Of a stretch of 64,000 nucleotides of DNA, positions 25,128-50,300 are shown piece after piece. Within the stretch, counting starts at the first letter, position 1; every line of letters begins with the position of its first letter. Origin of the DNA: a virus (lineage: Duplodnaviria; Heunggongvirae; Uroviricota; Caudoviricetes); IMG/VR virus record IMGVR_UViG_2524023210_000007, positions 16,429 to 80,428 of that record. The stretch is one strand, 5' to 3'. The position numbers were made by a program, and so were the translations under genes. The notes under the pieces were generated by a model. The model was given only the letters and a program-made list of their open reading frames with translations, was not told the origin of the DNA and did no database searches.

Positions 25128-25796
25128 ATGATCATCAACATCGATCACTTGAAGCGTTTGGCTGCAGACCCTAGCCACGCACTCGAACTCGGTAAGGCCG
25201 CCGAGCACATCGTATGTGCCGATTTGATCCTGAAGGGGTATCGCTGCTACCTGAGTGATCAGGGCCTCCCATATGATCTCGTCGTCGACCTCAAAATCCG
25301 GCTTATTCGGGTCCAGGTAAAGGCCTGCTGCTTTGCGCGCGGACGCAATGCCGGCCGTAAAGAACTGAGGTTCGCCTACTCGTGGAGTATCCGCCAGCGC
25401 GGGCGAGGTCGAAAGGGAGCGCGCCTGAGCGCCGAGCACTGTGATGTTGTGGCGCTCGTCGCGCTCGACATCGGCGTCACCGCATATCTTCCACTCGAAC
25501 TCTGTGGGCAAGGACTACGGCTCGAGCCGCCTGGTTCGCCGCTAAGCGCTTCGTTCACCTCTGGATCGCGATGGGCTCGAAATGTAGACCAATTTCCTTT
25601 CGAGGAAGCGATCGGAGGTGATCTGTCAAGCTACAAGGCAAGCCGCGGCGCGCACACGCATTGCATCCATGGGCACGAACTGACAGCCGATAACATCTAT
25701 GTTGACGCTCGCGGCAACCGCCTGTGCCGCAAATGCATCAGCGCGCGTAGCAAGTCCTATCTGGAGCGAAAGCGAGCCAAGGGAGCTCAAGAATGA
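25128..25796 (+). CDS. nuclease fusion: PD-(D/E)XK-like N-domain + HNH C-domain
   Basis: GKAAEHIVCADLILKGY...YDLVVDL...IRVQVKA (Hjc-like) and CIHGHELTADNIYVDARGNRLCRKC (HNH). Confidence 0.5.
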   Translation: MIINIDHLKRLAADPSHALELGKAAEHIVCADLILKGYRCYLSDQGLPYDLVVDLKIRLIRVQVKACCFARGRNAGRKELRFAYSWSIRQRGRGRKGARLSAEHCDVVALVALDIGVTAYLPLELCGQGLRLEPPGSPLSASFTSGSRWARNVDQFPFEEAIGGDLSSYKASRGAHTHCIHGHELTADNIYVDARGNRLCRKCISARSKSYLERKRAKGAQE

Positions 25797-26473
25797 GCAC
25801 CTGGTATTTCGACCCGCTCCCGATGTTCGGATTTGACGTAGTGGACGTTGACCCTCCGACGCACTTCCAACTTTATTCCGAGAAGGGCAACAGAAAGTCG
25901 GCATCGGCACAGTACGACATCATGTCGTGGGATGATCTGGCAAAGATGCCGGTTGGCCATCTCGTGCGCGGCAACGGCATCATCACGCTTTGGGCTTGCC
26001 CACCGACGCTCGAGCAATCGCTTTGGCTGTTGAGACAGTGGGGCGCCCGCTTCAAGACTGAGCTCGTGTGGCCAAAGGGGCGCATGACGACGGGCTATCG
26101 GTCGCGCGGCATGCACGAGTCCGTTTTGCTCGGCGTGTTCGGCGACGAGCACCAGATCCACGACGCGCTTTACGGCGTGATCAAGGGTAAAGCGCGCGGT
26201 CATTCCCAAAAGCCGCGCGAGTGGTACGCGCACCTCCGCAAGAAGACGCCGGGCCTCAGCCGGTTGTGCCTTTTTTCGCGTGAAAGCCATGAGGGATACA
26301 CGCACTGGGGCAACGAGGTCGGCCTACTCGACAACGATGTGAAGCTCGCTCGTCAGCAGAAAGAGAAAGTAATCGCGCCGACGCCTCTCTTCGATCGATT
26401 GGGAGAGGCGGCCCCGACCAGCGGATGCATCGAGCCTATCGAATTCGCGCGAGCGAATGAACTGCTGTTGTAA
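25793..26473 (+). CDS. MT-A70-family adenine methyltransferase
   Basis: VVDVDPPT (DPPW-like), ELVWPKGRMTTGYRSRGMHESVLLGVFG, SQKPREWY. Confidence 0.65.
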   Translation: MSTWYFDPLPMFGFDVVDVDPPTHFQLYSEKGNRKSASAQYDIMSWDDLAKMPVGHLVRGNGIITLWACPPTLEQSLWLLRQWGARFKTELVWPKGRMTTGYRSRGMHESVLLGVFGDEHQIHDALYGVIKGKARGHSQKPREWYAHLRKKTPGLSRLCLFSRESHEGYTHWGNEVGLLDNDVKLARQQKEKVIAPTPLFDRLGEAAPTSGCIEPIEFARANELLL

Positions 26474-28730: not shown

Positions 28731-28961
28731 ATGGCAGATTGGCGGAAGATCGAGACGGCGATCGAGGATTACTTTCGTCGCCAAGGCACGCCAGCCGCAC
28801 GAGCGGGCGGTGACCTCTTCGTTGGCGCGATCACCCCAGAGGTCACTCATCGAAGTGCCGACGATGGCCACGCGACGACCGTCCTCACTATCGACGAGGA
28901 AGAAGAGATCGCGTTCGTTTCGTTGAGCGATCTCGCGCGCGAATTGGAGGCGCTGAAGTGA
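28731..28961 (+). CDS. hypothetical protein (76 aa)
   Basis: track ORF; stop overlaps GTG start of C5-MTase. Confidence 0.4.
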   Translation: MADWRKIETAIEDYFRRQGTPAARAGGDLFVGAITPEVTHRSADDGHATTVLTIDEEEEIAFVSLSDLARELEALK

Positions 28962-31327
28962 CAGCGCTTTTTCAGGTCGACATTAACCATGCTCATCTTT
29001 TCTGCGGAGTCGGTGGCGGTGCAAAAGGATTTAACAAGGGCCGTGCAAAGGTCGGAAATCTCGTCGCTCGATTCAGATGCCTTGGCGGGATCGACAGTGA
29101 TCCGGCGGCATGCCGCGACTTCGAGTCGCTGGTCGGTGCCAAAGCTTCCTGCCGCGATCTTTTCTCCCGGGAGCAATATCGGGACTTTCACGGCCACGAG
29201 CCACCCGCTGGCTGGGTCGAGTCGCAGCCGGATGATGTTCGCCGTGATTTCGGCAACGAGCATCCGCATATCTGCTTCCTGTCTGCACCCTGTAAGGGCT
29301 TCTCGGGACTGCTGTCTGAGAAGATGTCCGGGACACGCAAGTACCAGGCGCTGAACGGTCTCACGCTGCGCGGCATCTGGCTTGTGCTCGAGGCGTATAA
29401 GGACGATCCGGTCGAGCTCATCGTGTTTGAGAACGTGCCGCGGATCGCGACGCGGGGTCGCTATCTCCTTGATCAGATCGTCGCGCTGCTGCGTGCGTAC
29501 GGACGCCTCGGACAGAGCCGCAAGCGGTTCCTCCTTGTGGCGCGATACGCCGCAAAGGTTCCGCCATTCGTCTACACGCCGGTCAAACACCCGCTGCGCG
29601 GCGTCGGCGAGATCCTCGAGAAGCTTCCGATCCCCGGCATCATCCCGGGCCTCGGCGGTCCGATGCATAGGATGCCGGCGCTGCAATGGAAGACGTGGGT
29701 CCGGTTGGCGTTCGTTCGCGCCGGCGCCGACTGGCGCTCGCTGAACGATCTTGCGGTGCGGGACGGCCATCTCCGTGACTTCGGGATAGTCCCGGACGAG
29801 GATTGGCACAGAGGCGTGCTCGGCGTTCGTCGATGGGATGACACATCCGGCACAGTGACGGCGCGAGCCAATCCGACGACGGGGGCATTCAGCGTGGCGG
29901 ACCCCCGCGAGATCCGCGCCCAGGACTTCCACGGTCTTAGGGTGAATAACTGGAAGGGCACGGCCGCCGCGGTGCCGACACAGCGTAGCCCTGGCTCAAG
30001 CGCTCAATCCGTCGCCGATCCCCGGATCGACGGTCACGAGAAAAGCGTGCAACTCGGCGTTGGTCACTGGGACCAGCCGTCGGCGGTGGTGAAGGGGGAT
30101 GTCTCGGTCGGTACCGGCCGATATGCCGTGGCGGATCCTCGACTCGAGCGCGAGGTCTTCAACTCGACGTTCCGCATCGTCTCCTGGCCGGAGACATCGC
30201 CAGCGATCGCCGGGCCTGGTGGTGCTGGTGGCGGGCTCGCCGTCGCGGACCCGCGTCCGGCGCAGCGGGATGACTACAAGCAAACCAAATATCGGGTGAC
30301 TGGCTTCGATGAGGCCTCCGGCGCGGTCATCGGCGCCTCGACCACCGGCACCGGAGCTTTCGCTGTCGCGGATCCCCGCCACCACAACTGGCATCCCGGC
30401 GCGTCGAGTTCGAAAGAGCGCGTCACGGCATGGGATGAAACGGCGCGTCCGATCACCGGATCTCAGCAGGTGGCGTCGGGTGCCGGAGCCGTTGCTGATC
30501 CCCGGCCAGGCTTTGGGAAGGGAACGCATCACCACGTCTTGAAGGTGACCGGTTGGGATCAGCATGGCGGCACCGTAACGGCGTCAACGCATCCATCTGG
30601 CGGCGCGCTCTCCGTGGCCGATCCGCGTCTCGCCGACGGCACCCGCAATTCCGCGCTGGGAGTCCAGGGCTGGCATGATCACTCCGGTGTTGTAGCCGGC
30701 GAGAGTCATCCGACCAACGGCGCCTTTGCCGTTGCCGACCCACGGCCGGAAGCGCTCTCGGACGAGAAGCGCGATGCCTATCTCACCGGTGGTCACTACG
30801 GTGTCGTGCCTTGGGATGAGCACAGTGGCGCGGTGCCGGCGCACGCTAAAAACAACAACGGGCCATGGTCGGTCGCCGACCCACGCGAGACCGGAGACGG
30901 TCCGACGGACGAGACGGCACCATGGGACAAACTCCCGGCCGCCAATGACAAATTGGTGTGCGTCATCCGTGCCCTGGACGGGACATGGCACAGGCCATTC
31001 ACGACGCTCGAGCTCGCCGCGCTGCAAGGCCTCGTCGACCTCGACGACGAAGAGGAGAGGGCGGCGCTTTCGCTGGATGCGCGCGACCCGGAATGGGTCG
31101 CCCACATCGAGCGGATGAACAACGTGCTGGTGCTGGACGGTGCGTCAGATAGCGCCTGGCGCGAGCGCATCGGAAACATGGTCCCGCCGCCTGCGGCGCA
31201 GGCGATCGCCGGCGTCTTCGGCACCACGCTGCTCGGCGCCTGGTCGGGCCAGACCTTCATGATGGGATCAACACCGATTTGGGTGCGGCCGGTCGCGGTC
31301 GCGCTCATGGCTGCTCAATCCACCTAA
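28958..31327 (+). CDS. DNA cytosine-5 methyltransferase with large tandem-repeat insertion
   Basis: motif I DLFCGVGG, motif IV SAPCKGFS, motif VI FENVP, C-terminal GNMVPPPAAQAIA (motif X); GTG start overlapping previous stop. Confidence 0.75.
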   Translation: MTALFQVDINHAHLFCGVGGGAKGFNKGRAKVGNLVARFRCLGGIDSDPAACRDFESLVGAKASCRDLFSREQYRDFHGHEPPAGWVESQPDDVRRDFGNEHPHICFLSAPCKGFSGLLSEKMSGTRKYQALNGLTLRGIWLVLEAYKDDPVELIVFENVPRIATRGRYLLDQIVALLRAYGRLGQSRKRFLLVARYAAKVPPFVYTPVKHPLRGVGEILEKLPIPGIIPGLGGPMHRMPALQWKTWVRLAFVRAGADWRSLNDLAVRDGHLRDFGIVPDEDWHRGVLGVRRWDDTSGTVTARANPTTGAFSVADPREIRAQDFHGLRVNNWKGTAAAVPTQRSPGSSAQSVADPRIDGHEKSVQLGVGHWDQPSAVVKGDVSVGTGRYAVADPRLEREVFNSTFRIVSWPETSPAIAGPGGAGGGLAVADPRPAQRDDYKQTKYRVTGFDEASGAVIGASTTGTGAFAVADPRHHNWHPGASSSKERVTAWDETARPITGSQQVASGAGAVADPRPGFGKGTHHHVLKVTGWDQHGGTVTASTHPSGGALSVADPRLADGTRNSALGVQGWHDHSGVVAGESHPTNGAFAVADPRPEALSDEKRDAYLTGGHYGVVPWDEHSGAVPAHAKNNNGPWSVADPRETGDGPTDETAPWDKLPAANDKLVCVIRALDGTWHRPFTTLELAALQGLVDLDDEEERAALSLDARDPEWVAHIERMNNVLVLDGASDSAWRERIGNMVPPPAAQAIAGVFGTTLLGAWSGQTFMMGSTPIWVRPVAVALMAAQST
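29820..30910 (+). repeat. intragenic tandem array, 9 units of ~38-40 aa (W-D/H-x-(H)SG-x-V ... G-A-F/L-A/S-VADPR), in the TRD position of the C5-MTase
   Basis: nine occurrences of the VADPR peptide at ~115-120 nt spacing, each encoded GTSGCSGAYCCSCG. Confidence 0.7.
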
Positions 31328-32557: not shown

Positions 32558-33364
32558 ATGGCGAAGACACCGAAACCGTTCGAGACAGAAGCCGCTCTTT
32601 GTGCGCGGTTTCTCTCGGCATTGCCAGATGGGTGGACGGCCTATCCGGAGACGGCGGGATGGGACATATTGCTTGCGCGCAATGCTGATGGCTTCCAGAT
32701 CGGCATCGAAGCCAAACTTCGGCTCAACACCGAGGTCATCTCGCAGGCGATTGAGGAATACGGAGCGTTCTCCGCCACCCGACCGGGCCCCGATTGCAGA
32801 GCTGTCTTGGTGCCGGCGTGCGAGCCTGGCGGCTTCGGTCGCATCTGCGAGTACATCGGCCTGACCATTATCTATGTGAGGTCGGAAGCCGAGATCGAGC
32901 AGACGAGAAAGCGGCACTACTATAAGCCGAAAGTCTTTGAGCCCGGCCTGCCGGAGTTGCTTCACGGGCGCAACGAGCAAGAATGGTACGAGTGGGCGCC
33001 AGCGTCTCGCCATAAATTGCCAGACTACGTCCCCGACGTCGTCGCCGGTTCGCCGTCACCGATCCAGCTAACGTCGTGGAAGATCGGCGCGATCAAGATC
33101 GCGATCATTCTGGAGAAGCGTGGCTTTCTGCTTCGCTCCGACTTCAAGCACATCAACATCGACCATCGCCGCTGGCTTCCGTCGGGTAACGGCTGGCTGG
33201 TGCTGGATAGAGGGGCGTATCGAGCCTCGATGGGCTTCCCAGACTTCAAGGCGCAACATCCTCGCGTTTACGGTGAGATCGCCGCGGACTACGACAAATG
33301 GAAGCCCGCTGATCCCGTCGGTCCGTTGCTGCTTCCCGAGCCGAAGCAGGAGCCGTTGATATGA
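32558..33364 (+). CDS. hypothetical protein, possible PD-(D/E)XK fold
   Basis: GWDILLARNADGFQIGIEAKL (D...E.K arrangement). Confidence 0.4.
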   Translation: MAKTPKPFETEAALCARFLSALPDGWTAYPETAGWDILLARNADGFQIGIEAKLRLNTEVISQAIEEYGAFSATRPGPDCRAVLVPACEPGGFGRICEYIGLTIIYVRSEAEIEQTRKRHYYKPKVFEPGLPELLHGRNEQEWYEWAPASRHKLPDYVPDVVAGSPSPIQLTSWKIGAIKIAIILEKRGFLLRSDFKHINIDHRRWLPSGNGWLVLDRGAYRASMGFPDFKAQHPRVYGEIAADYDKWKPADPVGPLLLPEPKQEPLI

Positions 33365-33717
33365 CCGATCGGATCGGCTGCTGCATCTCCGGTTGTGGTC
33401 GCACCTTCAAGCGAGAGCCGGGCGAATCCGAGACGACCGTCGTGATGTGCGGCAGGCATTGGCGCATGGGCGATGACGGCATGCGAAAGCGACACAAACA
33501 ACTGCGGAAGCGGGTGCGTTGGTTCGAGCGAAAGTGGAAGACACGCCGGAACGCGATCGAGCGGGCGCCGAAGGTTTGGGCGAAGTTTCATCGTGCCTGG
33601 GAGAGGGCGTGCGCGGCCGATCATGCGCTGTGGCACCGCATCAAGGAAGACGTCACGATTAAGGTCGCCTTCGGCGCCGAGGATGCGCCGCGTCGGCGCA
33701 GGAAGGAATTGGCGTGA
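33361..33717 (+). CDS. Cys/His zinc-finger protein
   Basis: CCISGC...MCGRHW; basic C-terminus. Confidence 0.45.
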   Translation: MTDRIGCCISGCGRTFKREPGESETTVVMCGRHWRMGDDGMRKRHKQLRKRVRWFERKWKTRRNAIERAPKVWAKFHRAWERACAADHALWHRIKEDVTIKVAFGAEDAPRRRRKELA

Positions 33718-34397
33718 CGATTCACTACCACGGCACGCCGCTGTCTCCGCGCTCCGAGCTCATGAAGATGGCTGGGAAATGCTTCTGCGTCCCGTTCTCG
33801 GATGCGCGGGATGCGGAGACATGCGTTTCGCTCGGTCAGTCCGTGATGTTCGACAACGGCAAGTTCGCGGCCCACACCCGAGGAGCTGTCATCGACACCG
33901 CGAAGCTTTACGCCTGGCTTGAACGCTTTCTGGCTCACCCCCATTGGGCAGTTGTAGAGGATGAGATTGACGGAACAGTCGAACAGCAGCGAGCGATGAC
34001 CGCGCGCTGGCCTTTTCCTCGGGCGTTGTCGGCGCCGGTTTGGCATATGGCGCTCCCGATTGATTATCTGCTTGAACTCGCAGACGAATGGCCGCGCGTC
34101 TGCTTCGGCTCGACAATGCAGTATTGGCAGGTCGGCTCCGGCGCGTGGTGCCGGCGCGCCGACGAGGCATTCAACGCTTTGGCGAAGCGCCACCGTTACC
34201 TGCCTTGGATTCACATGCTGCGAGGGATGTCGCTCGCCGGCGATCGCTGGCCATTTGCGTCGGTGGACTCGGTCAACGTCGCTCGCAACTTCAAGGATTT
34301 CAACCTGGACCCTGAGCGCATGGCGCGGCGCCTCGACGCCGTCCAGTGCAATGGCGTTTGGATCGTTCAACCCGAGCAACAGGATATGTTCACATGA
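33714..34397 (+). CDS. hypothetical protein; candidate TGT/DpdA-like transglycosylase (tentative)
   Basis: translationally coupled to queD; C-terminal ...KRHRYLPWIHMLRG loosely recalls TGT ...RAYLHHL...IHNLRY segment; no firm motif match. Confidence 0.3.
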   Translation: MTIHYHGTPLSPRSELMKMAGKCFCVPFSDARDAETCVSLGQSVMFDNGKFAAHTRGAVIDTAKLYAWLERFLAHPHWAVVEDEIDGTVEQQRAMTARWPFPRALSAPVWHMALPIDYLLELADEWPRVCFGSTMQYWQVGSGAWCRRADEAFNALAKRHRYLPWIHMLRGMSLAGDRWPFASVDSVNVARNFKDFNLDPERMARRLDAVQCNGVWIVQPEQQDMFT

Positions 34398-34771
34398 TGC
34401 CACAAACCATGAAGATCGCCGCCACGTACGGTTTCGAAGCGGCCCACCGGCTGCCTTTGCTGCCGAAGGAACATAAGTGCCACAACCTCCACGGCCACAA
34501 CTATCGCATCGAGGTCGTGGTTGAAGGGCCGGTAGACGAGCGTGGCTTCGTAATGGACTACGCCGAGCTCGATGGGATCGTAAAGCCGGTCGTCGATTTG
34601 CTGGACCACAAGTACCTGAATGACATTCCGGGTCTTGAAAATCCAACCAGCGAGGTGCTGGCCATCTGGTTAAAGACGCGAATCTGTCGGGAGTTTGAGA
34701 CAAATGGCGTAGTCAACAAGAATCTGACCATCCGGATTTTCGAAACGCCGAGGTATTGGGTCGAGGCCTGA
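34394..34771 (+). CDS. queD: 6-carboxy-5,6,7,8-tetrahydropterin synthase QueD (PTPS family)
   Basis: AAHRL...KCHNLHGHNYRIEVVVEG... Cys-x3-His-Gly-His zinc motif and PTPS-length. Confidence 0.8.
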   Translation: MMPQTMKIAATYGFEAAHRLPLLPKEHKCHNLHGHNYRIEVVVEGPVDERGFVMDYAELDGIVKPVVDLLDHKYLNDIPGLENPTSEVLAIWLKTRICREFETNGVVNKNLTIRIFETPRYWVEA

Positions 34772-35883
34772 TGACGCGCAACGACACCGCCGAGATCAAG
34801 AAGCGGCTCAACGAGAAACTGGAAGAAGTCTTGAAGCACTTCTGGCCTGGCTTCGTCACGCGCGGGAAGATGGCGTATTGCGCGCCGGCATCAAAGGCCG
34901 ATCTCGGCTCTTTCATGGTTTACCTCGCTCGAGTCGGTAAGCACGACCGGGGAAGCTGGATCCGCTATTCGGCTGGTATCGGTGGAGACGAGATCAACCT
35001 CTTTGCATATGGTCTGACGGGCAATCATCGCGCGACATCGGAGGACGTCTTTGACCGCGCGCGCGAATTTGTTGGTCTTGAGCGCGGGCGAGAGGAGACA
35101 CCGGAGGAGCGCAAGAAGCGGGAGGACCGTGCTGCTGAGGCCGCCGCGAAGCGGGCCGACGATGATCGCCGCGCGCAGGAGCAGGACCGCGCCAGGACCA
35201 CTACTGCAGGCGGCATCTGGGTGGAGTGCGTCGCGATCACCGGTACGTTGGCAGAGGCCTATCTCGTCGACGCCCGTGGAATCCCCGTTCCGCCGCGCGG
35301 CTGGTACGACTGCCTTCGCTTCCACCCGCGACTTCTGCTTCAGCCTGACGAACCGCCATCGCAATTCAACCAGGCATTTCCTTGCTTGGTTTGCCGAGTC
35401 GACGACGTCTTCGGTGATCTGACGGCGATCTGGCGCATCTATCTCGACCCGAAGAAGCCGGCCAAGGCCTCAATACGCGAGGCGAAGATGGGGTTCGGGC
35501 CAGCTGCCGGCGGAGCGATCAGGCTCGGCGGCCTTGCCGAACATATCGGCGCTGCCGAAGGTACGGAGTCCGCTCTCGGGGCAAACGCGCTGATCAAATA
35601 TCGGTACCCGGTGTGGGCGATGATGTCGACGAGCGGTCTAATCGGCTTCGAGGTGCCGATGGAGGTCGACTGGATCACTGGATTCCCGGACGGGGACAAG
35701 CCCTGGAAGAAGGAAGGGAACGACATCGTCCTCGCCGAGCCGGCGGGACGCGCGGCTATGCGACGGCTAGGCGAGCGGGTGCGCGCACTCGACAAGCGGT
35801 TTGATTGCCAACCGGAGCCGCCAATCCGGACAGACTATCTCGACCTTTATGCTGGACGCCGAAGGCTGATCGAATGCAGTTGA
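34771..35883 (+). CDS. primase-like protein (N-terminal zinc-binding-like region + Toprim)
   Basis: AYCAPASKADLGSFMV (CHC2-like, degenerate) and Toprim-like IWVECVAITGT ... DWITGFPDGD. Confidence 0.5.
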   Translation: MTRNDTAEIKKRLNEKLEEVLKHFWPGFVTRGKMAYCAPASKADLGSFMVYLARVGKHDRGSWIRYSAGIGGDEINLFAYGLTGNHRATSEDVFDRAREFVGLERGREETPEERKKREDRAAEAAAKRADDDRRAQEQDRARTTTAGGIWVECVAITGTLAEAYLVDARGIPVPPRGWYDCLRFHPRLLLQPDEPPSQFNQAFPCLVCRVDDVFGDLTAIWRIYLDPKKPAKASIREAKMGFGPAAGGAIRLGGLAEHIGAAEGTESALGANALIKYRYPVWAMMSTSGLIGFEVPMEVDWITGFPDGDKPWKKEGNDIVLAEPAGRAAMRRLGERVRALDKRFDCQPEPPIRTDYLDLYAGRRRLIECS

Positions 35884-36524
35884 TCACGCGAAAGGAGGCG
35901 GCGCAGGCGAACCTCAAACGCTTCTTTACCGGGAAACCTTGTCGCAATGGGCACGTTGCCGAGCGATTTGTCTCATGCAGCAAATGCGTCGCCTGCGGCA
36001 CTGATCAGAATCGCCGCAACGTGCAGTATCGAAAGGACCGATACGCGCGGCTGCGCGATACGCTGATCGTCAACAGCCGAGCTTATTACGCGGCCAACGC
36101 TGAGCGCCTTCGGGCGTATCGCCGGGACTATTTCACAAGGAACAAGGAAGCCTGCTATCGCTCAGCGATCGATTGGCGCGCCCGTAACCGGCGTCGTCTC
36201 CGTCAATACTACCGCGAATACAAGCGGAACCATCCGCTCCACACCAGGACGGTTTGGCACAACCGACGCGCCAGAAAGGTCGGCAATGGTGGCACGCACA
36301 CCAATGCCGACATCCTGCTGATAGTACGAGAGCAGAAAAACAAGTGCGCCTACTGCCGGCGTGCGCTGACAGGACTGCGCTGGCATCGCGATCATATCAT
36401 CCCGCTCGCGTTGGGCGGGACAAACGATCGGATAAATATTCAGGTGCTTTGCCCGCCGTGCAATTGGCGGAAGGGGGCAAAAGACCCGATCGAATTTGCT
36501 CAATCCATGGGGCTCTTGCTTTGA
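35874..36524 (+). CDS. HNH endonuclease with N-terminal zinc finger
   Basis: CAYCRR...HRDHIIPLALGGTNDRINIQVLCPPCNWRKG. Confidence 0.7.
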   Translation: MQLITRKEAAQANLKRFFTGKPCRNGHVAERFVSCSKCVACGTDQNRRNVQYRKDRYARLRDTLIVNSRAYYAANAERLRAYRRDYFTRNKEACYRSAIDWRARNRRRLRQYYREYKRNHPLHTRTVWHNRRARKVGNGGTHTNADILLIVREQKNKCAYCRRALTGLRWHRDHIIPLALGGTNDRINIQVLCPPCNWRKGAKDPIEFAQSMGLLL

Positions 36525-37837
36525 CAGTTCGGATTATCAATGGGGACAGCAGGTCGGTGGTGCGCGGTCTTGAGCCAGGCTCGATCCATGCCTGCGTTTG
36601 CTCGCCGCCGTATTTTCGGCTTCGCGACTACCAAATGCCCGGACAGATCGGGCTCGAGTCATCGCCCGAGGCCTACGTCTCCGAGCTCGTCTCGCTCTTC
36701 CGCGACGTCCGCCGCGCGCTGCGCGACGACGGCTCGCTCTGGATAAACATCGGCGATTGCTATGCTGGCTCCGGACGCGGCGGCAATCCCGCAGCCGGCT
36801 CGTCGACGCTGCTCGGCACGCTCCAATCACAAGAGGCCTCCATGATCGTGCGCGAGCGCTGGGAGATCGGTGCCAGCTCGAGGAAGGCGGCCAACACGGA
36901 GCGGGGCAGCCGCTTGCCGGCCGGCCTTCAGGAGAGGGCGCGCCAGAATAGTGCGATCGGTCGGGCCTGGGAGCCGCCGCCCGCTGGGCTCAAGCAGAAG
37001 GATCTCATCGGCATTCCATGGATGTTGGCATTTGCGCTGCGCGCCGACGGCTGGTGGCTGCGCAAGGACAATATCTGGGCCAAGCCGAACGGGATGCCGG
37101 AGTCTACCCGCGATCGGTCGACCAGCGCCCACGAATACGTTTTTCACCTAACGAAGTCGGAACAATACTACTACGGCTATGAGGACGTGAGGCTGCCGCC
37201 CGCGCCGGAGTCAGTCTCCCGGCTAGCGCGCGCGATGCGCGGCCGCCTTGAAGAAGGCGGTCTCGTGGTCAGCGGCGGCGGGTACGCGCCGGCTGGACAG
37301 CCACCGCACACCGGCGCCCGGCGGCGCGATCGCCAGCGGGGACACAGCCGACGTCATGCGGGATTCAATGACCGCTGGGATGGAATGTCGGTGGCGGAAC
37401 AGCGGGCGAAGGGCGCCGCGCTGCGCTCGGTCTGGTGGGTGGCGCCGGGCGGCTTCAATGACGAATTCTGCACGAAGTGCCGAGCGTTCTACCCGAGCGC
37501 GGAGGTAGGCGACCTAAGAACCGAGAAGGTTGAGCGCGACGGCCGGAAACTGACGCTGCGGTACTGCCGATGCGGGGCGTGCGATAGCTGGCTGAACCAT
37601 TTCGCCGTGATGCCGCCGGAGGTCGCGGCGACGTGCATCCTGGCTGGCGTCCCGGAAGGAGGCTCGGTCTTGGATCCGTTCGCCGGCGCCGGCACCACCG
37701 GCCTGGTGGCCGACCAGCTTCAGCGTAACGCTGTTCTTATCGAACTGAACGGAGACTACGCAGAGATGGCAGCGCGCCGATTCGGCGCGCTGCATCCGAT
37801 GCTGACGAAGGTTGAGCTCGAGCGAGCACCAGCATGA
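36521..37837 (+). CDS. beta-class N6-adenine (or N4-cytosine) DNA methyltransferase, CcrM/HinfI-like, with Zn-finger insertion
   Basis: motif IV CSPPYF near N-terminus and motif I VLDPFAGAGTTG near C-terminus; TTG start overlapping HNH stop. Confidence 0.7.
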   Translation: MTVRIINGDSRSVVRGLEPGSIHACVCSPPYFRLRDYQMPGQIGLESSPEAYVSELVSLFRDVRRALRDDGSLWINIGDCYAGSGRGGNPAAGSSTLLGTLQSQEASMIVRERWEIGASSRKAANTERGSRLPAGLQERARQNSAIGRAWEPPPAGLKQKDLIGIPWMLAFALRADGWWLRKDNIWAKPNGMPESTRDRSTSAHEYVFHLTKSEQYYYGYEDVRLPPAPESVSRLARAMRGRLEEGGLVVSGGGYAPAGQPPHTGARRRDRQRGHSRRHAGFNDRWDGMSVAEQRAKGAALRSVWWVAPGGFNDEFCTKCRAFYPSAEVGDLRTEKVERDGRKLTLRYCRCGACDSWLNHFAVMPPEVAATCILAGVPEGGSVLDPFAGAGTTGLVADQLQRNAVLIELNGDYAEMAARRFGALHPMLTKVELERAPA

Positions 37838-43224: not shown

Positions 43225-43433
43225 AGGAACCATCACCTCGCGCCGACCAGCTTAGGGCCTTGCGAGAAGCCAGATACGCGCGCAATCAGGCCCTGAAAAG
43301 CGAGCTCGACGCGCGGGATGCTGCGGCCGCGGCGAAGGAAGCGCCGCCGGCGCCGACAGCAAAGCGACCGCCGGCGAAGAAACGGCGCGCCAAGAAAGGA
43401 AGGCGCAGCCGGGGGAAGGACAATCGGTCGTAG
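43221..43433 (+). CDS. small basic protein (70 aa)
   Basis: GGAGGA RBS; ATGA overlap with previous gene. Confidence 0.4.
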   Translation: MKEPSPRADQLRALREARYARNQALKSELDARDAAAAAKEAPPAPTAKRPPAKKRRAKKGRRSRGKDNRS

Positions 43434-43435
43434 CG

Positions 43436-43771
43436 TCAGTCCTCGACGTCGGCATCAGCCGGCATCTGCCTCAGCTTCTGGTAGGGGAATTCGCCGAGTT
43501 CGGGATGGAGTCGGTCCGCCTGGATCATTGCCGCGGCGGCCATGCGCGCGGTCCCGAGCGCATTCGGGACCGTCAGGAGCGTCAGTGCGATCGGCACCCA
43601 GGTCGGAATATCCTGGACCTGGCCATCCTTCTCGCGGCCCCATCGGTTCACAGTTACCAGGTTCTGGCAGAACACGCGCGCGAAGGACTTCCGGGTCAGG
43701 CCCTGCCGTGCCAACTCGGTATCGAAATCTGCGCCCGAGATCTTGCGGTGAATAAATCGAGGTGGGGCCAT
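43436..43771 (-). CDS. HTH (XRE-like) regulator
   Basis: LTRKSFARVFCQNLVTVNRWGREKDGQ; GGAAAGGA RBS; first gene of leftward island. Confidence 0.5.
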   Translation of the reverse strand: MAPPRFIHRKISGADFDTELARQGLTRKSFARVFCQNLVTVNRWGREKDGQVQDIPTWVPIALTLLTVPNALGTARMAAAAMIQADRLHPELGEFPYQKLRQMPADADVED

Positions 43772-43804
43772 CTGAGGATCCTTTCCAATTGGGCACGGTT
43801 GCCC

Positions 43805-43857
43805 GGAATCGGCCGTAGCCGAGGGGTTAGCACAAAATCGATCGTAGCCGGGAGTCC
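43805..43857 (-). repeat. boundary repeat family 1, two direct copies (sense CYCCCGGCTACGRYCGATTTY)
   Basis: immediately 3' of the stop at 43865 and 5' of the RBS of gene 43436..43771. Confidence 0.6.
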
Positions 43858-43864
43858 CCGTCGG

Positions 43865-44239
43865 CTAGCTGAAGTCCAGCGGGGATACCAGGTGCCTGCC
43901 GACCGTCATCACCGGCGGGATGACGCCGCCGCGCTCGATCGCCGCCAGCCATTCCTTTTCGGTTCCGGTAAAGCCAGGTCCCGCCTCGACGTGATGGTCG
44001 GCCAGCCATTTGGCGAGCTCGCAAGTCGAAGCGCAGGGCGGCGATACCGGTGTCCCGGCGCTGGTGGTCTCGTACATCTGCCAGTGCGTCCGCTCCATCG
44101 CCGGCCACGCCGGCATATAGCTGGCGGCAGGATAAGGCGCGGGCGCATCCGGGAGGGCCTCGGCCAGCGGGATATAGCGGCCGGCGGAGTTGCGCGGGTG
44201 CTTCCAGTCGGCGGGCACGCGCCTAACGGTTCTGCTCAT
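43865..44239 (-). CDS. hypothetical protein
   Basis: internal ATG (MSRTVRRVPADWKHPR). Confidence 0.4.
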   Translation of the reverse strand: MSRTVRRVPADWKHPRNSAGRYIPLAEALPDAPAPYPAASYMPAWPAMERTHWQMYETTSAGTPVSPPCASTCELAKWLADHHVEAGPGFTGTEKEWLAAIERGGVIPPVMTVGRHLVSPLDFS

Positions 44240-44805
44240 GACGCCATTCCCTGACGCGCGAAGGGCCAAAGCCATTGGTCGATCCACGCGATAGTGGTTC
44301 GGTTGGCTTTGGTGGTGCGGCGCTGGTGGAGGCTGACCAGCCAGTGATATCCGTCCGCGAGGTCATCGGCGTGCTGCCCTTCGCCAAGTCCGATTAGGAC
44401 GTCACCCCACGACGCAACCATTCGGCGGCCGTCGCGGTCAGGCATGCCGTAGAGATAGAGCGAGCCGCCACCGCCGATCATCGGAGCGACGATCCAGGTA
44501 TAGAACTTGCCAGAACGGATTGCCGTCTTGAGATCGACAGCGAAGTCCTCTCCCATCGCTGATAAGAGCCGATGGAAAGGCACCTTCATCTCTTCGTCAT
44601 TCGGATCGACGCCGGCGCCATGCCACTCAGCCCAGCCATGGCTTTGGAAAATGTGCCGGCACTTTGATTCGTAATGCTGCCGCTGGCGGCAAACGAGGCA
44701 GTAGACCGTGTTGCTGTCGCAGTCGTCGCAAAGCATATTGTCGCGAAACACTTCGCCCACAGTCTCGCACCACTTACAGGTCCCAAGTTTGTAGTCGGTT
44801 GGCAT
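44236..44805 (-). CDS. Cys-rich hypothetical protein
   Basis: GAAGGAGG RBS; CKWC...CDDC...CLVC N-terminus. Confidence 0.5.
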   Translation of the reverse strand: MPTDYKLGTCKWCETVGEVFRDNMLCDDCDSNTVYCLVCRQRQHYESKCRHIFQSHGWAEWHGAGVDPNDEEMKVPFHRLLSAMGEDFAVDLKTAIRSGKFYTWIVAPMIGGGGSLYLYGMPDRDGRRMVASWGDVLIGLGEGQHADDLADGYHWLVSLHQRRTTKANRTTIAWIDQWLWPFARQGMAS

Positions 44806-44817
44806 CTATATCCTCCT

Positions 44818-45264
44818 TCACCTGGTCGGATGGAAGTTCAATTCGACCGATTGCTCGTGAGCGTCGTAAAGCGCCCTGATGTTGAGCCAATCGGTGGAGC
44901 GACCGTCGTTAGGACGCAGCCCAACCATGAGTCCGCCTTCCGGCGCCGGTTCAGAGAACAGCGCGCCAGAACCGAGAACAATGATCTGGCCGATCTCCGG
45001 TGTGCGCGGCGAAACACCGCGGAAGAGATCGCCAATATGCGTGCTCTCGCGAGTCTCTTTGACGACCGCGACCAGATCGCCTCTGTGGCCATCGAAGATG
45101 CGAGCCGTCTCGCGATCGATCAGCGAAGGCGACGGGATCGTGGTGAGCGAGGTCTGGCCGTCCTGGATCAAATAGACCGTGCCGTAACGATCGCTGCGGC
45201 GCTCCGACCCGCACCAGGTCAGGGTACCGACACCCAACAGGCGATTGATGACTTGATGTTGCAT
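44818..45264 (-). CDS. hypothetical protein
   Basis: AAAGGAGG RBS. Confidence 0.5.
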   Translation of the reverse strand: MQHQVINRLLGVGTLTWCGSERRSDRYGTVYLIQDGQTSLTTIPSPSLIDRETARIFDGHRGDLVAVVKETRESTHIGDLFRGVSPRTPEIGQIIVLGSGALFSEPAPEGGLMVGLRPNDGRSTDWLNIRALYDAHEQSVELNFHPTR

Positions 45265-45284
45265 GCATTCCTCCTTTCGGTTTG

Positions 45285-45304
45285 AAAATCGATCGTATCC
45301 GGGG
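45285..45304 (-). repeat. boundary repeat family 1, single copy
   Basis: plus-strand AAAATCGATCGTATCCGGGG; starts right after the stop of gene 45306..45617 and ~17 nt before next ATG. Confidence 0.6.
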
Positions 45305-45305
45305 A

Positions 45306-45617
45306 TCAGGATTGACCGGCTGTCTCAAGAACTCGTTTCAGGTCGAAGAATTCGACCATGGCAGGCACGCCCGTGCCGTCCCATTCCCAGATGACCCCAG
45401 TGAAGATCATCCGGTTTGCATCGCTGTGCTTGGTCGAGATATACGCCTGGGCCTCCTCCAGTGTCGGATAGCCATCGGAGTGGTGACCGATCGACTTGTA
45501 GCGCTAAGCGGTCATCTCGGCATCGGCGTTGCCAGGCATCGGGTAGGCACGGAACGGAATCGGGTGAAAGCGCCCAGTGGCGGTGTTCTTCAAAATGCCG
45601 GTGGGAAAGACGTTCAT
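45306..45617 (-). pseudogene. gene interrupted by in-frame amber codon (TAG at 45504..45506); possible RNase-H1-N/caulimovirus-VI-like fold
   Basis: GAAAGGAGA RBS + ATG at 45617; 37 codons, TAG, then 66 further in-frame codons to TGA abutting the family-1 repeat. Confidence 0.4.
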
Positions 45618-45636
45618 TGCGGGTCTCCTTTCTTCT

Positions 45637-45659
45637 GAAAATTGATCGTATCCGGGAGG
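45637..45659 (-). repeat. boundary repeat family 1, single copy
   Basis: plus-strand GAAAATTGATCGTATCCGGGAGG between stop of 45661..45939 and RBS of 45306..45617. Confidence 0.6.
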
Positions 45660-45660
45660 A

Positions 45661-45939
45661 TCAGAACAGTGAGCCTTGCGCCACATCTTCTAGCGGCGCC
45701 GCCGGCGTCCGACCGAGATGCTCGACCGTTTCGCCTATGATCTGGTCGCGGTCGTCGTCGATGAGAAGCCAACCGCGATCGCCGCCGGCAGGATCGTAAA
45801 CGACGAAGTCGCCGCCCCAGCGCTTGAAGATTCGTTCAGCAACGAGGCGCATGCCGGCGGGCACGTCGGTTGTGGCCTCGAACTCGGCGCGCGTAACGAT
45901 CTTGAAGCCCGCATTGATCAGGGTCTGTTCTCCGTTCAT
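45661..45939 (-). CDS. hypothetical protein (92 aa)
   Basis: internal ATG; coupled to upstream stop. Confidence 0.4.
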   Translation of the reverse strand: MNGEQTLINAGFKIVTRAEFEATTDVPAGMRLVAERIFKRWGGDFVVYDPAGGDRGWLLIDDDRDQIIGETVEHLGRTPAAPLEDVAQGSLF

Positions 45940-45940
45940 G

Positions 45941-46498
45941 TCAATAAACCTCGGCACCGATGCAAGCCGCGACGGCCGCGCGATACTCGCCGCCCGCGCG
46001 GTCCATGCGCTGCCAGACCTCCTTGCCGCCGAGCTTGTCGGCCAGCCATGCGAAGTCGGTCACGTAGAGGATGGCGTGCAGCAAGACCCGCTCGCCCGAA
46101 CTGCAGACGCCGTCGCATTGCTTGGCGAGTTTCACGAAACGCCCTTTGTCAGGATCGTTGAACTGCACGATAGAACTTCGGAGATGCCGCCAACTCTGCG
46201 CCGACTCGAGGTATTCGAGAAGACCCATCTTCCGAAAGATGCTGCGCGCCGGCTCACTAGCCTTGAAGCGCTCGAATCTGTGAACGTTCGCGCGTGCGTG
46301 GCCGAGTTCTTCGGCGACGTCGGGCATCCTTGCCCAGGTCCGTCCCGCATTCGTGATCTCGATCATACCGGGGTCGACACGTCGAGCCATCCCGGTATTG
46401 ACGAGAACACGCTCGGGGATGCGGTCGTGATCGGTGCGCGGTCCTTTCATGAGTTCATTGAGCAGCATCTGTTCCTCAGACGTCAGTTGGGTCGACAT
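45941..46498 (-). CDS. hypothetical protein (185 aa)
   Basis: GAGGAGA RBS. Confidence 0.5.
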   Translation of the reverse strand: MSTQLTSEEQMLLNELMKGPRTDHDRIPERVLVNTGMARRVDPGMIEITNAGRTWARMPDVAEELGHARANVHRFERFKASEPARSIFRKMGLLEYLESAQSWRHLRSSIVQFNDPDKGRFVKLAKQCDGVCSSGERVLLHAILYVTDFAWLADKLGGKEVWQRMDRAGGEYRAAVAACIGAEVY

Positions 46499-46515
46499 GG
46501 GTAAATCTCCTCTTC

Positions 46516-46566
46516 AAAATCGGCCGTAGCCGAGGGGAACGGGAAATCGGTCGTAAGCGGGAGGGC
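46516..46566 (-). repeat. boundary repeat family 1, two direct copies
   Basis: between stop of 46577..48877 and RBS of 45941..46498. Confidence 0.6.
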
Positions 46567-46576
46567 GCAGCCGGGG

Positions 46577-48877
46577 CTATCCCGGCGGCCCGTCGATCAC
46601 CACCAGCGCGGTATTCACCATCGTGCCGGCAGACTTGAACGAGCCGGCGGGCAGCGGCCTATATTCGAGAGCGATCGGCTCAAGGCGCGCGCGCTGCCGC
46701 GGGCCGTCGGCGCAGATCGCGACGAGCCGGCCGCCAGGCCGCAAGAACGTGCGGGCGTGCTCAATATGCCGGATATCGTCGCCATCCTTGAATGGCGGGT
46801 TCATCAAGACGCGATCGAACTTGCCGAGCTCGTCCGTGCTGCACTTGAGGAAGTTAGCGCAGTGAATGCGCAGGCCGCTAACTGGCGCACTGGCCAGGGC
46901 CTGCACCAATTGCGGGTTGATCTCGACCGCCACCTTATCGGGCGCTGGACCAATCGCCCGGAGGAGGGCGCCGGTTCCAGCGCTCGGCTCCAGGACACGA
47001 TGATCGGGCTCGATCTCGGCGAACTCGACGACGTCAGCGGCCAGCCTCGGCGGCGTTTCGAACAATTGCGGTGCGACGACAACTTGCACGCCGCCGCCGC
47101 GCAGCACCGCCCGCATGGCCTCAAAATCAGCCGTAGGCGAGGGAGGCGGCAAATCGGCCGTATCCGGGAGAGGGTCGAGCGCGGGCGCATCCGGCAGGCT
47201 GCAATCCAACGCGCTGCGCAACTCGTCGATCTTAACCCATCTCCACCCTTTGCTGCCATTAAGGCAGGCGGTTTTCAGCTCAACAAAACCATCCTCGGTT
47301 CGAAGCACTTCGCAAGACTCGCCTTGAAAAGTGAAGCGGTCGCCTTTGGTGAAAGCGAGCGCGGCCGCATCCAGGGTCATCGCCCGCGGGACAGGGTGCG
47401 GCTCGGCCATGATCTCGCCGACCGTCGCCAGCATGTCGTCAAGATCGACCGCGGGCGGCGCGACATACACCGCCACGAATTCGGCCGGCTCCTTCGGCTC
47501 CGCGGGCCGCGCGATCTTGGGCGGGTCGACGCGCTTTGCATCCGTGATGAAAACTTGCTGTTTCTTCCAGAACTCGCCAGGCACCGGCATTTGGCGGACA
47601 CGGTGCGCGCCGTGGGTCTCGGTCTCCTTCACCTTGCCGATATACGGGAAATCAGAGAACTGCCGGCGCGCCTTCCATTCGGCTTCCGTCATCTCGCGGA
47701 ATCCCTCGCCAGGATAGTTGCAGATCGGCGGGAGCTTGGCGGCGGCCTTCGCCGCGGCGACGTTCTCCGCGCTCGGTGCCCGATAATCGCGGATGCTTTC
47801 CACGCTCCAGCGCGCTTGCTTGGAGCGCGATCCGGCCGGCGCGGTCGTCGTCATGCTGGAAACCGAACCGTTGGCGCCCCTGTTGACCTTCAGCACCGTA
47901 AGCCATTCGTCGCCGCGGCGGGTCTGCACCTGACCGCCGACCGCGAAGGCGAAGCGGTCCGCAAGCGGGTTGGCAGTCGCCTCCGTGCCGATCTGCTCGG
48001 CCAACATCGCCCGTTCATAGGCCAGCCGGTTGTCATAGTGCGCCATCCAACGGTCCCGCCGAGGCCCTGAGCGTTCCAGGCTCGGAATCGCAATGGCGGC
48101 AGCCTGCGCGGCGGTGATGACGTTCCCGTCAATCGCCGACCAAAGGCCCATCGGTCCCTCATACTGCGAGGCCGGCGGGTCGCGCGGATAGTCGGCCAGC
48201 GGAAACGACATCGACCAATAACCGCCGATGTTGGCCACGGCCAAACCGGCGGCGCGCTGCCTCCCGGGGTCCGTGATGCCGGCGACGATCTGCCAGCCCT
48301 TCAGCTGCCTTTCGGTCTCCGCCTGCTGCTTCTCCAGCTTCCGCTTGTCGGACTCAATGCCCTTGATGCGGCGATGACGCACCGCCGGCAACTCCTTATA
48401 CTTCGCATGAGCGAGGGCGCCGGCGGCTCGCGCCGTCCAATAATTCGAGGTGTCCCAGAGTTTCAGCGCCTTCCGCATGCCGTTGTCCATGCGTTCTTTG
48501 TCTTTTCGCGCGCTCTTCTCCGAGTGATGGCCGACGAGGATGGGCTGCCCAAACGCGAAGCGTTCGGCGATTTGGTCGACCGCGTCGCGGGCGCGGTTGG
48601 CTTCGGCCAAGCGCTTGTCGCTGTACTCCTCGAAGCGGTCGGCGCGCTGCTCGGCGCGATCTACAAGGCTTGTGTCCTCGTCGCCGATCTCACCGCAGAG
48701 CTCAATCAGCAAATCTTCCCGGCTTGGCGTCCAGGTCGGCGCGACGAAAAGCCCCTGTTTCGGCGCCCACTTGAAGCCGGCGGCTTTCACGCGCGCGTAT
48801 GTCTCGGGATCGAGGCGCGAGACGGAATAGAGGCGAAGGCGGTTGTCGTCAGGGCAATAAGTAGCAGTCATGGTCAT
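46577..48877 (-). CDS. large fusion protein: ~600-aa conserved N-terminal region (ICE/plasmid-type, DUF3560-like?) + C-terminal gamma-class N6-adenine MTase
   Basis: C-terminus: motif I VLEPSAGTGALL, motif IV NPPF; AAAGGAG RBS 8 nt before ATG (MTMTATY); family-1 repeat pair encoded in-frame as linker. Confidence 0.6.
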   Translation of the reverse strand: MTMTATYCPDDNRLRLYSVSRLDPETYARVKAAGFKWAPKQGLFVAPTWTPSREDLLIELCGEIGDEDTSLVDRAEQRADRFEEYSDKRLAEANRARDAVDQIAERFAFGQPILVGHHSEKSARKDKERMDNGMRKALKLWDTSNYWTARAAGALAHAKYKELPAVRHRRIKGIESDKRKLEKQQAETERQLKGWQIVAGITDPGRQRAAGLAVANIGGYWSMSFPLADYPRDPPASQYEGPMGLWSAIDGNVITAAQAAAIAIPSLERSGPRRDRWMAHYDNRLAYERAMLAEQIGTEATANPLADRFAFAVGGQVQTRRGDEWLTVLKVNRGANGSVSSMTTTAPAGSRSKQARWSVESIRDYRAPSAENVAAAKAAAKLPPICNYPGEGFREMTEAEWKARRQFSDFPYIGKVKETETHGAHRVRQMPVPGEFWKKQQVFITDAKRVDPPKIARPAEPKEPAEFVAVYVAPPAVDLDDMLATVGEIMAEPHPVPRAMTLDAAALAFTKGDRFTFQGESCEVLRTEDGFVELKTACLNGSKGWRWVKIDELRSALDCSLPDAPALDPLPDTADLPPPSPTADFEAMRAVLRGGGVQVVVAPQLFETPPRLAADVVEFAEIEPDHRVLEPSAGTGALLRAIGPAPDKVAVEINPQLVQALASAPVSGLRIHCANFLKCSTDELGKFDRVLMNPPFKDGDDIRHIEHARTFLRPGGRLVAICADGPRQRARLEPIALEYRPLPAGSFKSAGTMVNTALVVIDGPPG
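47123..47174 (-). repeat. boundary repeat family 1 pair embedded in-frame inside the fusion ORF
   Basis: encodes ...LDPLPDTADLPPPSPTADFEAMRAV... just upstream of the MTase domain; coordinates approximate. Confidence 0.5.
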
Positions 48878-48896
48878 AGTGGTTGCTCCTTTCATC

Positions 48897-48912
48897 TTGC
48901 GCACAATCGCGC
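48897..48912 (-). repeat. palindromic repeat family 2 (TTGCGCACAATCGCGC) upstream of RBS
   Basis: 12-28 nt upstream of the 46577..48877 start, directly 5' of its SD. Confidence 0.55.
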
Positions 48913-48919
48913 TTTTCGG

Positions 48920-48977
48920 GAATCAGCCGTGACCGGGAGTCGCGGCTATCAACGGGAAATCAGCCGTAGCGGAGGCC
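48920..48977 (-). repeat. boundary repeat family 1, two direct copies
   Basis: begin immediately after the TAG of micro-ORF 48978..49085. Confidence 0.6.
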
Positions 48978-49085: not shown

Positions 49086-49103
49086 GGCAGCGGCACCGGA
49101 CCG

Positions 49104-49442: not shown

Positions 49443-49453
49443 CGGCGCCACCG

Positions 49454-50283: not shown

Positions 50284-50300
50284 GTCAGTATCCTTTCGAG

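Follow-up and report, generated by a model that had tools for sequence, protein, structure and literature searches.

Does the coupling of a queuosine-pathway gene to a gene of no annotated family mean that a temperate phage of rhizobia modifies its own DNA? We addressed this question in a 64,000-nucleotide stretch (hereafter the window; positions 16,429 to 80,428 of IMG/VR record IMGVR_UViG_2524023210_000007), which is a temperate phage integrated in the Bradyrhizobium sp. Ai1a-2 genome. In its rightward replication arm, queD overlaps the gene for a 227-amino-acid (227-aa) protein that we assign to a short family of DpdA-like proteins, relatives of tRNA-guanine transglycosylase (TGT). Taken together, the homology, fold, conserved residues and gene linkage described below indicate that the two genes probably constitute a two-gene 7-deazaguanine DNA-modification module within the early/replication operon of this phage.

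Results

A TGT-fold protein overlaps queD

The two genes and their junction are as follows.

33714..34397, + strand: dpdA-like gene whose product, a TGT-fold protein with no zinc site, belongs to the short "singleton" phage DpdA family (family profile, profile-profile comparison and conserved residues)
34394..34771, + strand: queD, 6-carboxy-5,6,7,8-tetrahydropterin synthase (ATG start at 34394, TGA end at 34771, 125 aa)
34394..34397, + strand: dpdA stop and queD start overlapping as ATGA, read from the sequence (translational coupling)

The upstream open reading frame (ORF) begins with GTG, preceded by the Shine-Dalgarno-like stretch GGAAGGAA, and this start is right because homologues have the same N-terminus. 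An earlier note on this DNA had described a 227-aa protein beginning MTIHYHGTPL whose stop overlaps queD by ATGA, and the ORF and its junction read exactly so. The 227-aa product is WP_027578447.1, a "hypothetical protein" of Bradyrhizobium sp. Ai1a-2 in RefSeq, and the 125-aa product is 100% identical to the NCBI entry "QueD [Bradyrhizobium sp. Ai1a-2]", with both proteins encoded on one 214-kb RefSeq contig. Gene overlaps of four nucleotides are common in phage operons and unremarkable by themselves.

We found that the 227-aa protein matches PHROG 887, "queuine tRNA-ribosyltransferase", over residues 1-194 (E 5e-30), and that tblastn with the same query recovers relatives in 96 phage genomes, several of them labelled queuine tRNA-ribosyltransferase or transglycosylase. 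Among these relatives are Salmonella phages SEN1 and SW9 and Pantoea phage MED16, whose protein is 33% identical across 94% of the query; for MED16 a probability of 99.2% to 2ASH is reported (PMC8306585). When a 279-sequence family alignment was compared with the family of phage 9g DpdA1, an experimentally validated enzyme, using hhalign, the match had 95.6% probability (E 1e-8, 150 columns), in a register that pairs FDNGKF with LDSGAFS, PVWH with PCFH, IHMLRG with VHGFG and SVDS with SCDS (227-aa family and 9g DpdA1, respectively). The 9g DpdA1 sequence, used as a tblastn query, also matched several family members directly (E ~1e-5). An hhalign comparison of either this family or the DpdA1 family with the single Escherichia coli TGT sequence, a weak template because it is one sequence, was not significant (probability 1.5-2%), with the DxGxF motifs in line.

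Structure prediction with AlphaFold (AF2) yielded a beta/alpha barrel for the 227-aa protein, with a predicted local distance difference test score (pLDDT) of 78.9 and a predicted template modelling score (pTM) of 0.78; the fold is a TGT-like (beta/alpha)8 barrel. Searching this model against BFVD, a library of viral structures, returned 21 matches at E <= 1e-3, the named ones being nearly all phage queuine tRNA-ribosyltransferases. Outside the protein's own family, the neighbours (E 5e-7 to 1e-3) came from actinophages, an archaeal virus and a roseophage and are named "queuine tRNA-ribosyltransferases". PHROG 887, the profile-profile match to 9g DpdA1, the residues considered below and the gene neighbourhood agree in supporting the earlier proposal that this protein is of TGT/DpdA type. 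The family comprises more than 2,600 protein clusters at 90% identity, and its members are listed as hypothetical because Pfam, NCBIfam and PADLOC miss them; even 9g DpdA1 has only a weak match to the PADLOC DpdA model (E 0.02).

In a separate observation, a 354-aa protein (P0059) carries a 68%-identical DpdA-like domain fused to nucleoside 2-deoxyribosyltransferase domains (PF05014/PF15891). This fusion is a single instance on one 2.2-kb Logan contig and may be an assembly artefact.

The predicted active site is intact and the flagged segment is a barrel strand

We counted residue conservation over the 279 family sequences, with the set of close relatives designated A1. The residues kept in at least 97% of these sequences include D47, D83, H111, H167, S183, D185 and S186, each of which the 227-aa protein has. 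The corresponding features are listed here.

33852..33854, + strand: Asp47 codon in the motif FDNGKF, predicted general acid/base (aligns with LDSGAFS of 9g DpdA1)
33960..33971, + strand: Asp83-Glu-Ile-Asp86 codons (family consensus PDVIDG), candidate base-recognising aspartate (family conservation, hhalign)
34044..34046, + strand: His111 codon in the motif PVWH, candidate DpdA active-site histidine (aligns with PCFH of 9g DpdA1)
34185..34226, + strand: KRHRYLPWIHMLRG, barrel beta-strand with the conserved His167, Arg170 and Gly171 (AF2 strand at residues 165-168; hhalign register)
34260..34271, + strand: Ser183-Val-Asp185-Ser186 codons, Asp185 being the predicted nucleophile (aligns with SCDSS of 9g DpdA1)

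Relative to bacterial DpdA, Asp47 is predicted to correspond to Asp95, Phe51 to Phe99 and Asp185 to the nucleophile Asp256 (roles of these three DpdA residues from PMC10164549). Asp47 also lines up with TDSGGFQ of E. coli TGT, in an alignment that is not significant alone. Both D83 and D86 are candidates for the equivalent of bacterial DpdA Asp130; D86 is kept in at least 90% of the A1 set, and hhalign pairs it with the aspartate of the LDG motif in DpdA1. A catalytic aspartate pair and a base-recognising Asp/His can therefore be placed by alignment, although not by the model, which is unreliable near D185.

The earlier note had likened KRHRYLPWIHMLRG to the zinc subdomain of TGT and DpdA. This segment sits 17 residues ahead of D185 and is the counterpart of VHGFG in DpdA1 and of KPRYLMGVG ... 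DMFDC in E. coli TGT, the strand that precedes the nucleophilic aspartate, so the zinc assignment has to be replaced. No CxCxxC...H zinc motif (CxCx2C as defined in PMC10164549) was found in the 227-aa protein or in 9g DpdA1. The 227-aa chain has six cysteines (positions 23, 25, 37, 130, 146 and 212) and ends 42 residues past D185; a zinc site elsewhere in the protein was considered and, on the sequence, rejected, there being no CxCxxC. The missing motif is among the features that define TGT and bacterial DpdA, but it does not define phage DpdA, because 9g DpdA1 is also without CxCxxC.

The downstream gene encodes QueD

As the earlier note had proposed, the 125-aa protein is a 6-carboxytetrahydropterin synthase, QueD (PTPS-I), with its enzyme activity predicted from sequence. 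It matches Pfam PTPS (E 9e-31) and scores 98.0 bits against the equivalog model TIGR03367 queuosine_QueD (cut-off 89.25), while falling below the cut-off of the generic 6PTHBS subfamily model. Against the E. coli QueD structure 4ntm the phmmer match is E 1e-28 and collinear over residues 10-96. The catalytic signature is intact.

34478..34498, + strand: QueD signature Cys29-His-Asn-Leu-His33-Gly-His35 (CxxxHGH), read from the sequence

This motif separates QueD from the phage DpdL decarboxylase, which has LxxxHRHxF (PMC10516641). Further residues read from the sequence are H18, D71-H72 and E117, the equivalence of E117 being by position alone. The QueD of phage 9g, which complements E. coli (PMC6884629), shares 30% local identity with the protein studied here. 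We also considered a Bradyrhizobium "MULTISPECIES QueD" (P0275, 61% identity) as the host's housekeeping copy lying beside a DpdA and rejected it: transposases surround it, and the 228-aa protein nearby is unrelated.

Relatives of the dpdA-like gene are linked to precursor supply

We then assembled a set of 160 related loci, taken from genomes and viral contigs irrespective of their neighbours, and scored genes within 1.5 kb. A gene for preQ0 (7-cyano-7-deazaguanine) supply, whether VUT/YhhQ, queD, queE or queC-like, was present in 103 of the 160, so that linkage to precursor supply is seen both here, in the queD overlap, and across the family. The VUT/YhhQ family of preQ0 transporters (PMC6884629) accounts for 98 of the 160 loci, almost always on the same strand and often abutting dpdA. 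Far fewer loci have queD (five, one of them with queE as well) or a queC-like gene plus VUT (three), and 57 have no supply gene. The association extends to named phages: Escherichia phage Opt-719 has a VUT gene directly upstream of dpdA, in Rhizobium phage RHph_X2_30 and in Pseudanabaena phage Pam5 one or two small ORFs lie between dpdA and a DUF165/VUT gene, and in Caulobacter phage DMCA queD abuts the dpdA homologue. The nearest relative of the QueD studied here (68% identity), located in another prophage, overlaps a 52%-identical DpdA-like gene. Adjacency of queD and dpdA occurs in distant lineages and in either order (DMCA and loci L025, L029, L035, L051, L066 and L172). This unannotated family is strongly linked to YhhQ and QueD.

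In viral contigs L116, L124 and L161 the gene directly upstream of that for the DpdA-like protein encodes a ~180-aa QueC-like protein, and a VUT gene is near. The QueC-like protein is 24-25% identical to the QueC part of 9g Gat-QueC, and this variant could bear on the origin of dADG (2'-deoxy-7-amido-7-deazaguanosine) rather than of 2'-deoxy-preQ0 (dPreQ0).

queD is an optional cassette

Three sister Bradyrhizobium prophages encode a dpdA 78-89% identical to the one studied here, in the same synteny and with no queD. DNA alignment with the three shows homology up to the dpdA stop that resumes at the primase start. The sister slot (10684-10890 in L004, and the same in L005 and L085) holds instead a ~200-nt ORF of ~68 aa with an AP2-like signature, GYRGV...W...AYD...NF, which has a GTGA overlap with dpdA and a stop/start overlap with the primase gene. 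The junctions flanking the pair in this phage are given below.

33714..33717, + strand: GTGA overlap of the stop of a 118-aa ORF (33361-33717) and the dpdA start, read from the sequence
34769..34773, + strand: TGATG overlap of the queD stop and the primase start (DNA alignment with the three sister prophages)

Because the AP2-like ORF occupies exactly the same slot, queD is a swapped-in and optional cassette, with the ATGA and TGATG overlaps as its two ends. The TGATG overlap and the sister alignment also indicate that the true primase start is the ATG at 34771 and not the TTG at 34756 that begins the longest ORF. We found no promoter-like or terminator-like signals exceeding the shuffled background across 31.2-39.4 kb. 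The overlapping upstream genes for 268-aa and 118-aa proteins were considered as partners in the system and set aside, as outside the sister prophages they accompany dpdA in just two other loci.

Discussion

Proposed mechanism

In the mechanism we favour, QueD would turn dihydroneopterin triphosphate made by host FolE into 6-carboxy-5,6,7,8-tetrahydropterin (CPH4). This would commit more flux to host QueE and QueC, in the direction of CDG and preQ0, and so raise the pool of 7-deazaguanine, either preQ0 or its amide 7-amido-7-deazaguanine (ADG), during lytic growth. The 227-aa DpdA would then swap guanine in phage double-stranded DNA (dsDNA) for preQ0 or its amide through an Asp/Asp double displacement as in TGT and DpdA, with Asp47 acting as general acid/base. 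Base exchange would follow replication, probably at a rare sequence motif only, and its likely purpose would be marking or protecting phage DNA against host nucleases. Insertion of a 7-deazaguanine into the DNA of this phage is suggested by analogy with the dADG found in the DNA of phages MED16 and 7-11 and with the insertion of preQ0 into DNA by the DpdA of phage 9g (PMC8306585, PMC6884629).

Several observations weigh against a DNA-modification module. Profile-profile and structure comparisons, of the kind that the earlier note had advised, gave the match to DpdA1 and the phage relatives in BFVD, but Foldseek against the PDB gave generic TIM barrels alone (E > 1e-3). Likewise, searches of PDB sequences with phmmer and with a 36-sequence profile produced chance matches only, and the 227-aa protein has no match in Pfam (E <= 0.1), NCBIfam or PADLOC (E <= 1), including PF01702 and the PADLOC DpdA model. 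Residues 170-227, the stretch that contains the predicted nucleophile, are poorly modelled by AF2, and the structural zinc site that is canonical for TGT and bacterial DpdA is missing. Adjoining the conserved Asp83, residue 82 is Glu in this clade but Pro in 97% of the family. The sister prophages have dpdA but no queD, and the queD pairing is therefore dispensable. Modification in characterised relatives is also slight: dADG amounts to ~0.13% of G in MED16 DNA, which most restriction enzymes tested still cut, and to ~0.02% of G in Salmonella phage 7-11; the DNA of Mycobacterium phage Orion, which has DpdA only, is unmodified (PMC8306585, PMC6884629). The earlier note had envisaged replacement of G by 7-deazaguanines. 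Given the precedent of trace dADG in the short group, with little effect on restriction in vitro, wholesale replacement is unlikely.

Alternative explanations

The pair could instead serve an auxiliary metabolic role in which QueD, alone or together with the TGT-like protein, increases or rewires queuosine in host or phage tRNA for phage translation, DNA not being the target. QueD is a genuine queuosine-pathway enzyme, the fold family is that of the tRNA-guanine transglycosylases and the window contains a tRNA-Met gene, all of which fit such a role. Queuosine occurs, however, in the GUN-anticodon tRNAs for Asn, Asp, His and Tyr, and tRNA-Met is not a substrate. The very low DNA modification in characterised singleton-DpdA phages would also fit (PMC8306585, PMC6884629), but dADG is nonetheless present in MED16 and 7-11 DNA, and the nearest function-tested relatives are DNA enzymes, 9g DpdA1 having failed to complement an E. 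coli tgt deletion (PMC6884629). Moreover, neither the zinc subdomain nor any of the C-terminal parts with which TGT and archaeal TGT (arcTGT) bind tRNA is present in the 227-aa protein, and we consider the tRNA role unlikely. An assignment of QueD to folate or biopterin metabolism, as a PTPS-II/III-type enzyme not concerned with preQ0, could appeal to its Pfam match, which is to the generic PTPS family, and to the functional promiscuity of COG0720/PTPS. It is extremely improbable for a protein that scores above the QueD equivalog cut-off and below that of 6PTHBS, bears the QueD CxxxHGH motif, finds its best solved relatives among bacterial QueD enzymes and is linked to dpdA.

Nor does the coupling have to be meaningful, since queD might be a stray moron in a variable slot and the dpdA-like gene inactive or of another role. 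The slot between dpdA and primase does hold an unrelated AP2-like ORF in the three sisters, a neighbouring slot has gained an HNH endonuclease, and queD pairing is seen in only five of the 160 related loci. Yet by a rough estimate that assumes one queD per several thousand genes, chance would place only ~0.1-0.2 queD in 160 neighbourhoods, and the adjacency recurs in distant lineages and both orders. All conserved family residues are intact and the closest QueD relatives are phage-borne beside dpdA, so that unrelated passengers are an improbable explanation. It is very unlikely that the TGT-like protein acts on a non-nucleic-acid target or in host defence, whether on a 7-deazaguanine-protein conjugate as Cap10 does, by interfering with type IV CBASS (cyclic oligonucleotide-based antiphage signalling system) or Dpd, or by draining or sequestering the deazaguanine pool. 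Its Cap10 score is no different from its DpdA and arcTGT scores (9% identity) and no PADLOC model matches; linkage to transporter, QueD, QueE and QueC fits consumption of a free base for insertion, not removal of a conjugate, and relatives yield dADG in DNA. Because MED16 and 7-11 show trace modification and weak restriction protection, there is some room for a further reading, that the zinc-less TGT-fold protein does not chiefly protect DNA but is a counter-defence or regulatory tool that uses the QueD-boosted 7-deazaguanine pool on another target. Such a tool could act on deazaguanylated proteins like Cap10 (of Rhizobiales type IV CBASS), or could set a few site-specific dADG marks that steer replication or packaging and do not serve to block restriction; we regard this reading as quite unlikely. 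Insertion of a 7-deazaguanine into phage DNA remains the reading we prefer.

Prophage setting of the proposed module

The gene content of the window comes from a Pfam survey of its 83 called genes plus one PHROG assignment, that of the DnaD-like loader. The window has a GC content of ~0.62, and a CI-like repressor and a Cro/YdaS-like gene lie at ~20.9-22.0 kb. The leftward arm encodes an exonuclease, Dam, a PP2C, a PD-(D/E)XK nuclease and an SbcC-like ATPase. The rightward replication arm has genes for the DnaD-like loader, MT-A70 methylase, beta clamp, C5 methylase and SPFH protein, then dpdA-queD, then the genes for primase, HNH endonuclease, N4/N6 methylase and DnaB. The window also encodes terminase, portal, S49 protease and capsid proteins, and no integrase was found in it.

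The remaining preQ0 genes are not in the window: the Pfam survey of the 83 called genes returned no QueC, QueE, FolE, QueF or VUT/YhhQ match, and six-frame tblastn of the window gave none when the queries were FolE, QueE and Gat-QueC of phage 9g or two VUT/YhhQ proteins of phages, in agreement with the earlier report that queC, queE and folE are absent. ArcS likewise had no match in the window. The one radical SAM gene of the window (9835-10674, - strand) was examined as a hidden QueE and rejected, being of the PA0069/Rv2578c/"mobile pair B" type. It overlaps by 4 nt the gene for a 215-aa protein (9191-9838, - strand), in which we saw a faint phosphoribosylanthranilate-isomerase-like similarity.

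The phage encodes at least five DNA methyltransferases (Dam, MT-A70, C5, N4/N6 and a DUF3560-methylase fusion), a heavy investment in DNA modification next to dpdA.

1083-1835 (- strand), 25793-26473 (+ strand), 28958-31327 (+ strand), ~36524-37837 (+ strand) and 46577-48904 (- strand): DNA methyltransferase genes

The C5-type enzyme (28958-31327, + strand; phrog_116 / phrog_32684) has 789 aa, compared with 641 aa in the sister-prophage enzyme, and its central part contains about nine copies of ...G-A/L-F/S-A/S-V-A-D-P-R spaced ~40-50 residues apart. The HNH/endonuclease VII-like gene (35805-36524, + strand) lies between primase and the N4/N6 methylase, overlapping both ORFs, and is probably a homing-endonuclease insertion because it is missing from the three sister Bradyrhizobium prophages. 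A minus-strand island at ~43400-53100, between the replication and packaging modules, contains many ORFs with no family match and encodes a DUF932 protein and a 775-aa protein that combines DUF3560 with a methyltransferase, two types that are characteristic of the anti-restriction regions of conjugative elements.

Elsewhere in the window, the genes for portal and S49 protease are followed by two adjacent HK97-type Phage_capsid paralogues (59406-60455 and 60614-61951, + strand; E 5e-33 and 3e-40). The tRNA-Met (CAT) gene (17958-18034, - strand), which has the leftward early genes on one side and the DnaD-like loader on the other, could be phage-borne or mark an element boundary. The PP2C-type phosphatase gene (4360-5184, - strand) lies close to that of a 577-aa protein (2020-3753, - strand), which has no Pfam or PHROG match and whose N-terminus is kinase-like by eye.

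Significance

If the proposed module is real, temperate phages that infect rhizobia (Bradyrhizobium) would join those known to modify DNA with 7-deazaguanines. The family would then offer a clean natural comparison of how one kind of enzyme is fed, in most loci by a salvage transporter (YhhQ/VUT), in a few by de novo genes (QueD, sometimes QueE or QueC-like) and in the sister prophages by neither. A family model would mend thousands of "hypothetical" annotations, and the practical interest lies in phage restriction resistance and in the sequencing of modified phage DNA.

Comparison with known systems

The closest known proteins are those of the singleton DpdA group, namely gp38 of Pantoea phage vB_PagS_MED16, gp34 of Shigella phage SfI and the DpdAs of Salmonella phages SEN1, SW9 and 7-11. 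The 227-aa protein shares with them 32-34% identity over 84-94% of the query, the same PHROG, a short chain with no zinc motif (theirs being ~250-260 aa), common D/D/H/D residues and an early-region location in mostly temperate or lambdoid phages. It is shorter than they are and lacks their C-terminal extension. Whereas the singleton-DpdA phages have no preQ0-pathway gene and infect gamma-proteobacteria, here queD is added and the host is alpha-proteobacterial.

The combination itself has counterparts in Caulobacter phage DMCA and in the metagenomic prophages L172, L029, L035 and L066, where queD and dpdA are adjacent or overlapping on one strand. The DpdAs of these pairs are 38-52% identical to the one studied here, and for QueD the identity is 56-68% with L029, L066 and L172 but lower with L035. 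They differ in that queD often comes first, L066 adds queE, and the DMCA DpdA is annotated as hypothetical.

DpdA1 of Enterobacteria phage 9g and Escherichia phage CAjan (Queuovirinae) is related by profile-profile homology, aligned catalytic motifs and the absence of CxCxxC, and the same chemistry is predicted, exchange of guanine for preQ0 in dsDNA. DpdA1 differs in having ~310 aa, direct identity of ~17-25% and a complete FolE/QueD/QueE/(Gat-)QueC set; no complete Queuovirinae-type cluster of FolE/QueD/QueE/QueC plus an amidotransferase was found in the window, where QueD stands by itself. DpdA1 modifies 25-32% of G (PMC6884629).

Bacterial DpdA (Salmonella Montevideo, PDB 7UI4) is more distant, with 413 aa, four insertions, a CxCx2Cx22H zinc site and a requirement for the DpdB ATPase (PMC10164549), none of which applies here. 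Neighbouring genes gave no PADLOC match to DpdB or a dpd cluster, and the Pfam survey of the window revealed no Dpd-like cluster. Unlike bacterial TGT and arcTGT, the 227-aa protein has no zinc subdomain, N-terminal lid or tRNA-binding domains, and it shows no significant sequence match to them. Its likeness to Cap10 is at the level of fold only, and the type IV CBASS operon genes (CD-NTase, Cap9 and effector) were not found in the window survey or by PADLOC.

The underlying biology is already established in other phages, and the proposed module is one more case of a strategy by which phages are known to modify DNA; it is no new kind of system. What it adds is the rare presence of QueD, an alpha-proteobacterial host, a corrected active-site assignment, the linkage of the family to YhhQ and QueD, and the cassette nature of queD.

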